From Eledone cirrhosa (taxonomy: Eukaryota): a stretch of DNA of 64,000 bases. Shown here piece after piece: positions 46,756 to 47,252 of the stretch (its first letter is position 1; each line of letters opens with the position of its first letter). The notes below the pieces were generated by a model. It made no database searches, was not told where the DNA came from, and saw only the letters and a program-made list of their open reading frames with translations. A program made the position numbers and the translations under genes. The stretch lies in the NCBI GenBank assembly GCA_964016885.1, contig CAXHJY010001100.1:124001-188000 (forward strand), read 5' to 3'.

Positions 46756-46833
<78 letters not shown>

Positions 46834-46955
46834 GGAGGTGAGTTTTATTGTAGTACAATAAAGCAATGCAGATATCGGATAAGAAGCACTCTACAGTTTG
46901 TGGGACTGGAGTATGCATAATATAAGATCAAAAGATGGTTAAAGGAGTTCCATAT

Positions 46956-47024
46956 ATTTTATTATGCGCATTTCAAAAACAAACATCATCAAGCAATAAT
47001 ATTTGTGTTTTCATCAGATAAAAC
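46956..47024 (-). ncRNA. Type I hammerhead ribozyme, inverted copy of 47093-47161
   Basis: Reverse complement of the + strand motif (tcatcag at 47011-47017). Confidence 0.85.
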
Positions 47025-47092
47025 AGGAGAACATGTTGATTTAAAACTGCACTATCAACAAGTGTTTTTTAGCCTTCATATCATGTTCTCCT

Positions 47093-47161
47093 GTTTTATC
47101 TGATGAAAACACAAATATTATTGCTTGATGATGTTTGTTTTTGAAATGCGCATAATAAAAT
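47093..47161 (+). ncRNA. Type I hammerhead ribozyme, complete core
   Basis: gttttat-CTGATGA-aaacacaaatattatt(gctt)gatgatgtttgttttt-GAAA-tgcgca-TA-ataaaat. Stem I closes, stem II pairs 15/16 including 3 G.U, and stem III is the palindrome ATGCGCAT. Predicted cut after 47154. Confidence 0.88.
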
Positions 47162-47192
47162 ATATGGAACTCCTTTAACCATCTTTTGATCT

Positions 47193-47252
<60 letters not shown>

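Follow-up and report, generated by a model that had tools for sequence, protein, structure and literature searches.

A short Penelope-like insertion with mirrored hammerhead arms, and a family-wide junction pattern that points to probable twin priming on a capped RNA

Introduction

Two hammerhead ribozyme motifs lie back to back at positions 46831 to 47200 of the DNA analysed here, a 64,000-nucleotide stretch of the Eledone cirrhosa genome that we call the window. A first-pass annotation of the letters alone had noticed the pair and put it forward as the best candidate for a recent, active ribozyme. The locus therefore raises the question of what it is, how two copies of one motif came to face away from each other, and whether either would be expected to cut. 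We find that the locus is almost certainly the stub of a high-copy Penelope-like retrotransposon (PLE), a 370-bp insertion within a (TA)n tract. As a copy it is ordinary, being one of many that are nearly identical, and the junction pattern of the whole family is the more interesting result. The annotation saw the hammerhead pair correctly; it overlooked the retrotransposon, the tail on one side, the flanking (TA)n and the fact that the spacer is a leader.

Results

(TA)n adjoins both ends of the insertion, with 36 AT units of the target tract on the left (46759..46830) and 25 on the right (47201..47250); a target-site duplication cannot be read inside (TA)n. Reading from the left, an 86-nt tail on the minus strand (46831..46916) comes first. 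Its outer end at 46831, which in a parent copy falls 84 nt upstream of the ORF start, is the first of two fixed 3' ends, and its last 21 nt have 13,333 exact matches in the genome. The left arm (46917..47035, minus strand) is a 5'-truncated pLTR that runs on into this tail, and tail and arm together match a longer inverted copy with ORF pieces (L160) at 205/205 positions. The right arm (47033..47200, plus strand) is the inverted pLTR without a tail, for which no right-hand counterpart exists. It reaches from position +3 of the inferred RNA start, at 47033, to the second fixed 3' end, and matches L160 at 168/168. The two arms meet head to head at CATG (47032..47035), of which ATG (47033-47035) is common to both as microhomology. 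The arms had looked identical by eye, and indeed the stretches 46917-47035 and 47082-47200 are exact reverse complements over 119/119 nt. The 46 nt between them (47036-47081), which read as a spacer, are the leader of the right arm.

Beyond two matches of 24-26 nt, the window contains no further pieces of the parent element. We found no empty allele, and the right flank is a repeat too. At 47255-47670 (plus strand) lies a copy of another high-copy repeat, which elsewhere forms tandem arrays with a period of ~511 bp (e.g. G000:C4:232630270 onwards). Its ends are TA runs, and it contains CTGATGAG with no GAAA to match; the window's copy is without ~48 nt, and the unit could be retrozyme-like or PLE-derived. 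Two minus-strand fragments, 43269-43616 and 42017-43035, read like LINE-type reverse transcriptase.

Copies of the same structure are abundant. When the genome was searched with the DNA of the locus, 372 candidates came up, of which 40 were scored; these gave 83 matches, many spanning the whole structure. The 67-nt hammerhead occurs 1,322 times exactly. The first 100 hammerhead matches listed contain 30 divergent pairs (15 of them <300 bp apart), one direct pair at 3,672 bp and no convergent pair, and 30 of these 100 matches sit in short divergent pairs like the one studied here. The first 30 tail matches on contig C1, an unselected sample, are followed by a TA-type run in 28 cases and by leader and ORF in two; 17 of the 30 have an oppositely oriented arm match inside the fetched stretch. 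Runs X5 and X6, from two other organisms (B and C), likewise contain the family, some of their contigs at >=95-99%.

The parent element can be read at L071, where direct pLTR repeats flank the ORF with a period of 3,709 bp and the open frame comprises 808 aa, or 798 aa from the first Met. Direct pLTR repeats flank the ORF also at L072 and L159. Among the 10 long loci examined, L071 alone has a full-length frame from the first Met, the others being truncated or interrupted. The ORF starts 343 nt after the position that we call +1. The window's arms are identical to those of L160 and ~92-95% identical to those of L071.

The predicted model of the L071 protein (mean pLDDT 81) finds telomerase RT (TERT) as its top Foldseek match, with an E value of 7.9e-09, and on this model the parent encodes a telomerase-like RT. 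The ORF carries the motifs SDKT, MGASD, YRDDG, CNCPVKNKC (a CxCX5C linker), CNLCLNE (CxxC before E) and CLH (CxH near the end). Its C-terminal stretch LIYECKV...YFGST...FKARL..H is GIY-YIG-like and can be aligned by eye with the Hydra EN rows in the available supplement of PMC8557442, so by eye the parent appears to encode a GIY-YIG endonuclease. Pfam, run with two ORFs and six homologues, gave nothing significant and no match to a GIY-YIG profile, and a PDB sequence-profile search with the parent ORF gave 0 matches. A homologue search returned 37 proteins at 28-41% identity, of which one was named, uninformatively. By its motifs and by-eye likeness, the parent would be a Hydra-type PLE, and the locus is a short, young insertion of that family with the known inverted-pLTR anatomy.

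Between the RT and the endonuclease, residues 590-663 of the L071 ORF form an Asn-rich linker of low confidence, which recalls the N-rich inserts described for bdelloid Penelope elements. Other PLE-like ORF pieces with the same motif set were seen near family copies (L003:421-1098 on the minus strand, L031:191-1612, L070:2528-3019 on the minus strand and L029:2991-3365 on the plus strand), so the (TA)n niche seems common to several related families.

The ends of the arms are where the family becomes informative. Over the fetched loci, which are a biased set, 130 arms run into the tail and 115 give way to a TA run at the point that corresponds to 47200; the other 46 are unclassed, many of them with variant tails or with TA runs that are imperfect. 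The distance between the two fixed outer ends is 86 nt, and these ends also bound inverted copies of kilobase length in which pieces of the ORF are found. The inner end is fixed as well. The native sequence reads TTTTC|ATATG through this point, so the fixed end is a 6-bp palindrome, CATATG. The 19-mer starting at the +1 A has 12,539 matches, 5,370 of which have the native four upstream bases; the remainder, at most 7,169, is an upper bound on the non-native cases, mutated native copies being included. In 30 unselected loci, 18 of the 32 arms have their start between +1 and +3; where a tail arm starts at +1, as seven do, its partner invariably does so too. In runs X1 and X4, 15 listed joints connect a variety of left positions to 47033-47035.

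The base in front of +1 is also biased. Among the 4,784 cases in which it is not C, it is G in 2,340 (49%), against 22% expected by composition. At control junctions that start with AT, G comes first in 10 of 38 (Fisher p 0.005 against the excess at +1). Microhomology alone could raise the share of G, since G precedes ATA in the antisense (partner) unit in 5 of 12 non-C cases (42%). The partner arm could have supplied the template at 11 of the 27 G junctions that we inspected, and by eye perhaps at two others (L042 and L215). An extra G marks the copying of the cap at full-length L1 junctions, as described in PMC11702581; the available text of PMC7353768 yielded nothing on the cap.

What is observed, then, is the family, the RT and GIY-YIG-like motifs of the parent, two fixed outer ends, a fixed inner end, the similarity of the arms and the extension of both arms across the cut site. 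Very probably, the locus is a PLE insertion in which a tail-bearing and a tail-less pLTR stand head to head in (TA)n; both were likely copied by reverse transcription of the 5' end of a single sense RNA that was uncut and likely capped. As for the way this happened, we favour, with a fair degree of confidence, twin priming with the capped sense RNA as template, a reading of the sequences that would run as follows. The PLE endonuclease would cut both strands of (TA)n, in a predicted double-strand cut. One DNA end would prime at the end of the tail and the other 86 nt upstream, and both cDNAs would extend towards the RNA start at TTTTC|ATATG. At the present locus the tail-less cDNA would have reached +3 and the tail-bearing cDNA would have ended ~50 nt short, after which the two would have been joined through the ATG microhomology. 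A lizard PLE studied in vitro cleaves both strands, extends each of them and starts reverse transcription from two internal sites that bound the tail, with an uncleaved RNA as template (PMC11167929, as far as its available text goes). The two outer ends 86 nt apart match these in-vitro start sites.

The best surviving alternative concerns the same element and differs in the template: with an antisense template, self-priming (fold-back) at the palindrome CATATG could have produced the inversion, a route put forward for bdelloid Penelope elements. That proposal was made from palindromic junctions and, in the available text of PMC3846280, left the sense alternative open. A native fixed end that is itself a 6-bp palindrome suits self-priming, and 7,755 - 5,370 = 2,385 matches have the C with non-native bases upstream of it, the inspected examples being mirror-image centres. 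However, the inverted arm ends at +1 in L042, L045, L047 and L067, whatever the stop or the sequence of its partner. In L047 and L067 the two arms share no sequence at all, a result that fold-back copying cannot give. The inverted arm of the window, moreover, exceeds its partner by 48 nt at the centre, and the excess of G is not predicted by fold-back. The A at the fixed inner end lies in TCA+1, which resembles an initiator. Together, the G excess and a fixed inner end at this initiator-like A favour twin priming on a capped sense RNA over antisense self-priming, and we regard fold-back as unlikely.

We then consider the hammerheads that the arms carry. The right copy occupies 47092..47162 on the plus strand. 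Its stem I pairs 47092-47099 with 47155-47162 in 8 bp of A-U and G-U; CTGATGA lies at 47100-47106, stem II at 47107-47142 and GAAA at 47143-47146. ATGCGCAT at 47146-47153 is a palindrome that spans A15.1 to U16.1, and H17 is A47154. The left copy (46955..47025, minus strand) has its core at 47017-47011 and H17 at 46963. Both copies contain the complete type I core (CUGANGA, GAA, A15.1-U16.1 and H17), in line with the claim that they retain every core base. The predicted cuts fall after 47154 on the plus strand, where the annotation had also placed it, and after 46963 on the minus strand. The palindromic stem III holds up as well, and is of the dimer type described for animal PLE hammerheads (PMC4209133). 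Stem II had been called long and wobble-rich: it is long, with 15 pairs, one C.U mismatch and a GCTT loop, and only moderately rich in wobbles, with U.G in 3 of the 15 pairs.

When the arm was shuffled 100,000 times by mononucleotide, two of the shuffled sequences contained such a motif. Folding z-scores reach only -1.3 to -2.0, and a search of the window against Rfam found nothing that passed the gathering score. Position 10.1-11.1, a conserved G-C, is A-U here (47107/47142). As a monomer helix III has 2 bp, and the active monomer fold has a predicted probability of 3e-05; between molecules, the palindrome is predicted to form an 8-bp duplex of -10.5 kcal/mol. Across 222 arms the stem II pairs are kept in 98-100%, and all seven recurrent stem II variants preserve pairing, where ~0.6 of transitions would do so by chance. 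In the same arms no double compensatory change was seen in stem II; within the core, the position where subfamilies recurrently vary is N7. Some loci in the per-site variation table were chosen because they have a junction close to the motif on its 5' side, which inflates the variation there. Modest evidence of this kind makes the hammerhead fold look maintained at the level of the family.

Two more type I hammerheads lie elsewhere in the window, both on the plus strand. The one at 30560-30608, with an 8-bp stem I and ATATGTAT as stem III, has a layout similar to that of this PLE family and is probably the remnant of a related PLE pLTR. The other, at 12148-12193, has a 12-bp stem II and a 4-bp stem III, stands ~35 nt before a (TA)n run and belongs to another family.

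The case for an active ribozyme at this locus weakens in the light of the family. The recency part of the claim stands, the subfamily being young, whereas activity finds no support, an identical 67-nt hammerhead occurring at each of those 1,322 places. The identity of the arms is a weak argument, since 14 of the 29 other top loci likewise show zero arm differences; it is also unremarkable, because two arms that arise together when the element inserts would be expected to match. Transcription through the locus was said to yield a duplex and, in addition, a sense hammerhead. The duplex, of 119 bp, would indeed form; the two are alternatives and do not add up. In a predicted read-through RNA the arm duplex is favoured by 101 kcal/mol over the best fold that keeps the hammerhead stems, and the complement of each sense hammerhead is transcribed first. 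No intramolecular dimer can form, because divergent arms give one sense hammerhead per strand. We therefore consider ribozyme activity in read-through RNA of the locus unlikely on these predictions, with the arm duplex probably masking the hammerheads in every such RNA. They are probably passengers of the repeat, weak and dependent on a dimer or a protein in the parent RNA. Animal PLE hammerheads show no activity as monomers and cleave weakly as dimers, according to what is available of PMC4209133.

We also looked for a footprint of cleavage, on the premise that copying of a cleaved RNA leaves arms that begin at the base after H17. The search gave 709 matches; 89 of the first 100 listed were fetched, with 11 apparent internal deletions, judged by eye, omitted. 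A script found 91 matches in them, including at least one duplicate, and 83 were classed as junctions. The arm 5' ends have their mode at the first base after H17, with 14 of 83, and counts of 11, 9, 8, 8 and 7 are found elsewhere, mostly at AT starts. One control window had 1,091 matches with many sequence variants, and another had 365 matches with clusters and symmetric pairs of its own, and we do not take the mode at the cut as support for cleavage.

A further reading is compatible with the PLE stub and adds function to it, namely that the locus is a working source of ribozyme. The internal promoter of the right arm would produce an RNA from near 47033 without the antisense arm, and cleavage after 47154 would proceed in an intermolecular dimer or with the help of a protein. 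An RNA from the arm's own promoter starting there would escape the duplex, and Penelope is described as having an internal promoter (PMC2377424). The intact core, the stem II variants with N7 as the recurrent one in the core, and the peak of arm ends just past H17 all fit this reading. On the other hand, the right arm is without +1 and +2, the cut-site peak barely exceeds the other AT-starting positions (11, 9 and 8), and the control window likewise has clustered and symmetric breaks. The negligible monomer fold, the A-U pair at 10.1-11.1 and the behaviour of animal PLE hammerheads in PMC4209133 count against it too, and we think a working ribozyme source rather improbable. That both arms run across the cut site implies that their template was uncut.

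The uncut RNA of the preferred reading would give rise to both arms at the moment of insertion, and the variation of the arms can be compared with this expectation. In the 30 best loci, which as top matches are biased to young copies, the arms differ at 32 of 3,663 positions within a locus and at 3,557 of 108,141 between loci. Zero arm differences are seen at 15 of these 30 loci, one of them being the locus in the window. Subfamily variants and rare variants are usually present in both arms of a locus, across several subfamilies. The centre junctions, in turn, are highly diverse: the window's exact 35-nt junction has 2 matches in the genome. Diverse junctions combined with arms that are alike within a locus indicate an inversion at each insertion, not one inherited from a palindromic master. 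Gene conversion is a possible cause of the arm similarity.

A palindromic master would be a non-autonomous element in its own right, MITE-like or retrozyme-like, with the 370-420 bp palindrome copied whole from one or a few masters and central deletions acquired later. Many loci do have a full palindrome of 420 bp in common (L013-L016, L022 and L023), and near-symmetric central truncations exist. Such a master sits badly with variants that are common to both arms of a locus in several subfamilies, with the diversity of the centres, with a one-sided tail beyond the inverted repeat, and with outer ends that also bound the kilobase-long copies with ORF pieces. We consider it improbable. Still less probable, to the point of being hardly credible, is that the inversion is an assembly artefact, which had been named as a possible refutation: the window is on a minor contig (C1127) and no contig of the examined runs spans the whole locus, yet the same anatomy with different junctions recurs on many chromosome-scale contigs, the exact 35-nt junction is found at one other locus whose flanks are unlike the window's, and the one-sided tail agrees with published PLE anatomy. 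Contigs of 48 nt from runs X2 and X3 cross the centre junction with one mismatch and are too short to count as bridging.

Two further candidates were rejected. For a MITE or DNA transposon, the 86-nt tail beyond the repeat on one side and the RT encoded by the parent do not fit; for a non-LTR retrozyme of direct tandem units, the pair is inverted, and the 100 matches listed contain 0 short direct pairs.

Discussion

On balance, we read the thousands of short mirrored copies as a genomic record of how PLEs make their inverted repeats, in which the two ends of one cut would prime two cDNAs at two fixed leader sites of an uncleaved sense RNA, each cDNA running off at the cap before the two are joined in head-to-head orientation. 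We found no report of a cap-like G at PLE junctions or of PLE twin priming in the literature outside most subscription journals that our search covered. If this reading is true, it would settle whether the template is sense or antisense, a question left open for PLEs, and a start site would have been mapped from the genome without RNA data. The family predicts a capped start at one A, 125 nt ahead of the cut. The hammerhead would have stayed uncut in most templates in vivo, and the genome would have been seeded with hundreds to thousands of perfect hairpin substrates of 120-170 bp. Through genome-wide counts, this young and very high-copy family would link the inverted-pLTR models of PMC3846280 to the two-site priming seen in vitro in PMC11167929.

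The comparison with known systems is limited to the available parts of the reports cited. Elements of the Hydra clade, such as Hydra-1_Obim (Craig et al. 2021, PMC8557442), have in common with this family a single ORF with a C-terminal GIY-YIG (here GIY-YIG-like by eye), the DKT motif, the CxCX5C linker, CxxC and CxH, as well as a hammerhead in the repeat and a (TA)n target, the latter in 28 of the 30 unselected copies here. At the place of the RWK motif of the clade, this family has RWI. Hydra-1_Obim is nevertheless a different family: two pLTR DNA motifs had 0 matches in the supplement of PMC8557442, and the Hydra-1_oBim hammerhead differs. Units of the clade are described as "generally <3 kb", compared with 3.7 kb here, and the present family has at least 13,333 copies and a tail of 86 nt where 30-40 nt have been published.

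The canonical PLE insertion (PMC8557442, PMC3846280 and PMC2377424) likewise has head-to-head pLTRs, the inverted one 5'-truncated, a one-sided tail and an AT-rich target. Here, by contrast, no ORF lies between the pLTRs, both arms come from the leader region only, and thousands of arms have one inner end. The metazoan PLE hammerheads of Cervera and de la Pena 2014 (PMC4209133) are also of type I, with a long helix II and a palindromic helix III, and in Schistosoma dual motifs lie on opposite strands 100-700 bp apart. Helix II has 15 bp here and 7-8 bp in the Schistosoma motifs; the 10.1-11.1 pair is A-U here, with AUA as the cleavage triplet. In giant squid, 235 hammerhead matches are mentioned in PMC6962438. 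Non-LTR retrozymes (bioRxiv 10.64898/2026.07.22.740005) are short, non-coding and PLE-derived with a type I hammerhead, as the present locus is, but they are direct tandem repeats, whereas the locus is an inverted pair.

Two further systems bear on the mechanism. In L1 twin priming (PMC11702581) the second DNA end also primes internally, the junctions have microhomology, and an extra G is present at full-length 5' junctions; the inverted and direct pieces of L1 barely overlap, whereas here both cDNAs would copy the same region from two fixed sites. The Poseidon element PAc of Anolis (Frangieh et al. 2024, PMC11167929), with its two RT start sites, extension of both strands and uncleaved template, matches the fixed outer ends found here. 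The available account of PAc does not address inverted repeats or the 5' end of the RNA. PAc belongs to another clade, and its ORF starts inside the hammerhead, not 343 nt after +1 as in the present family.
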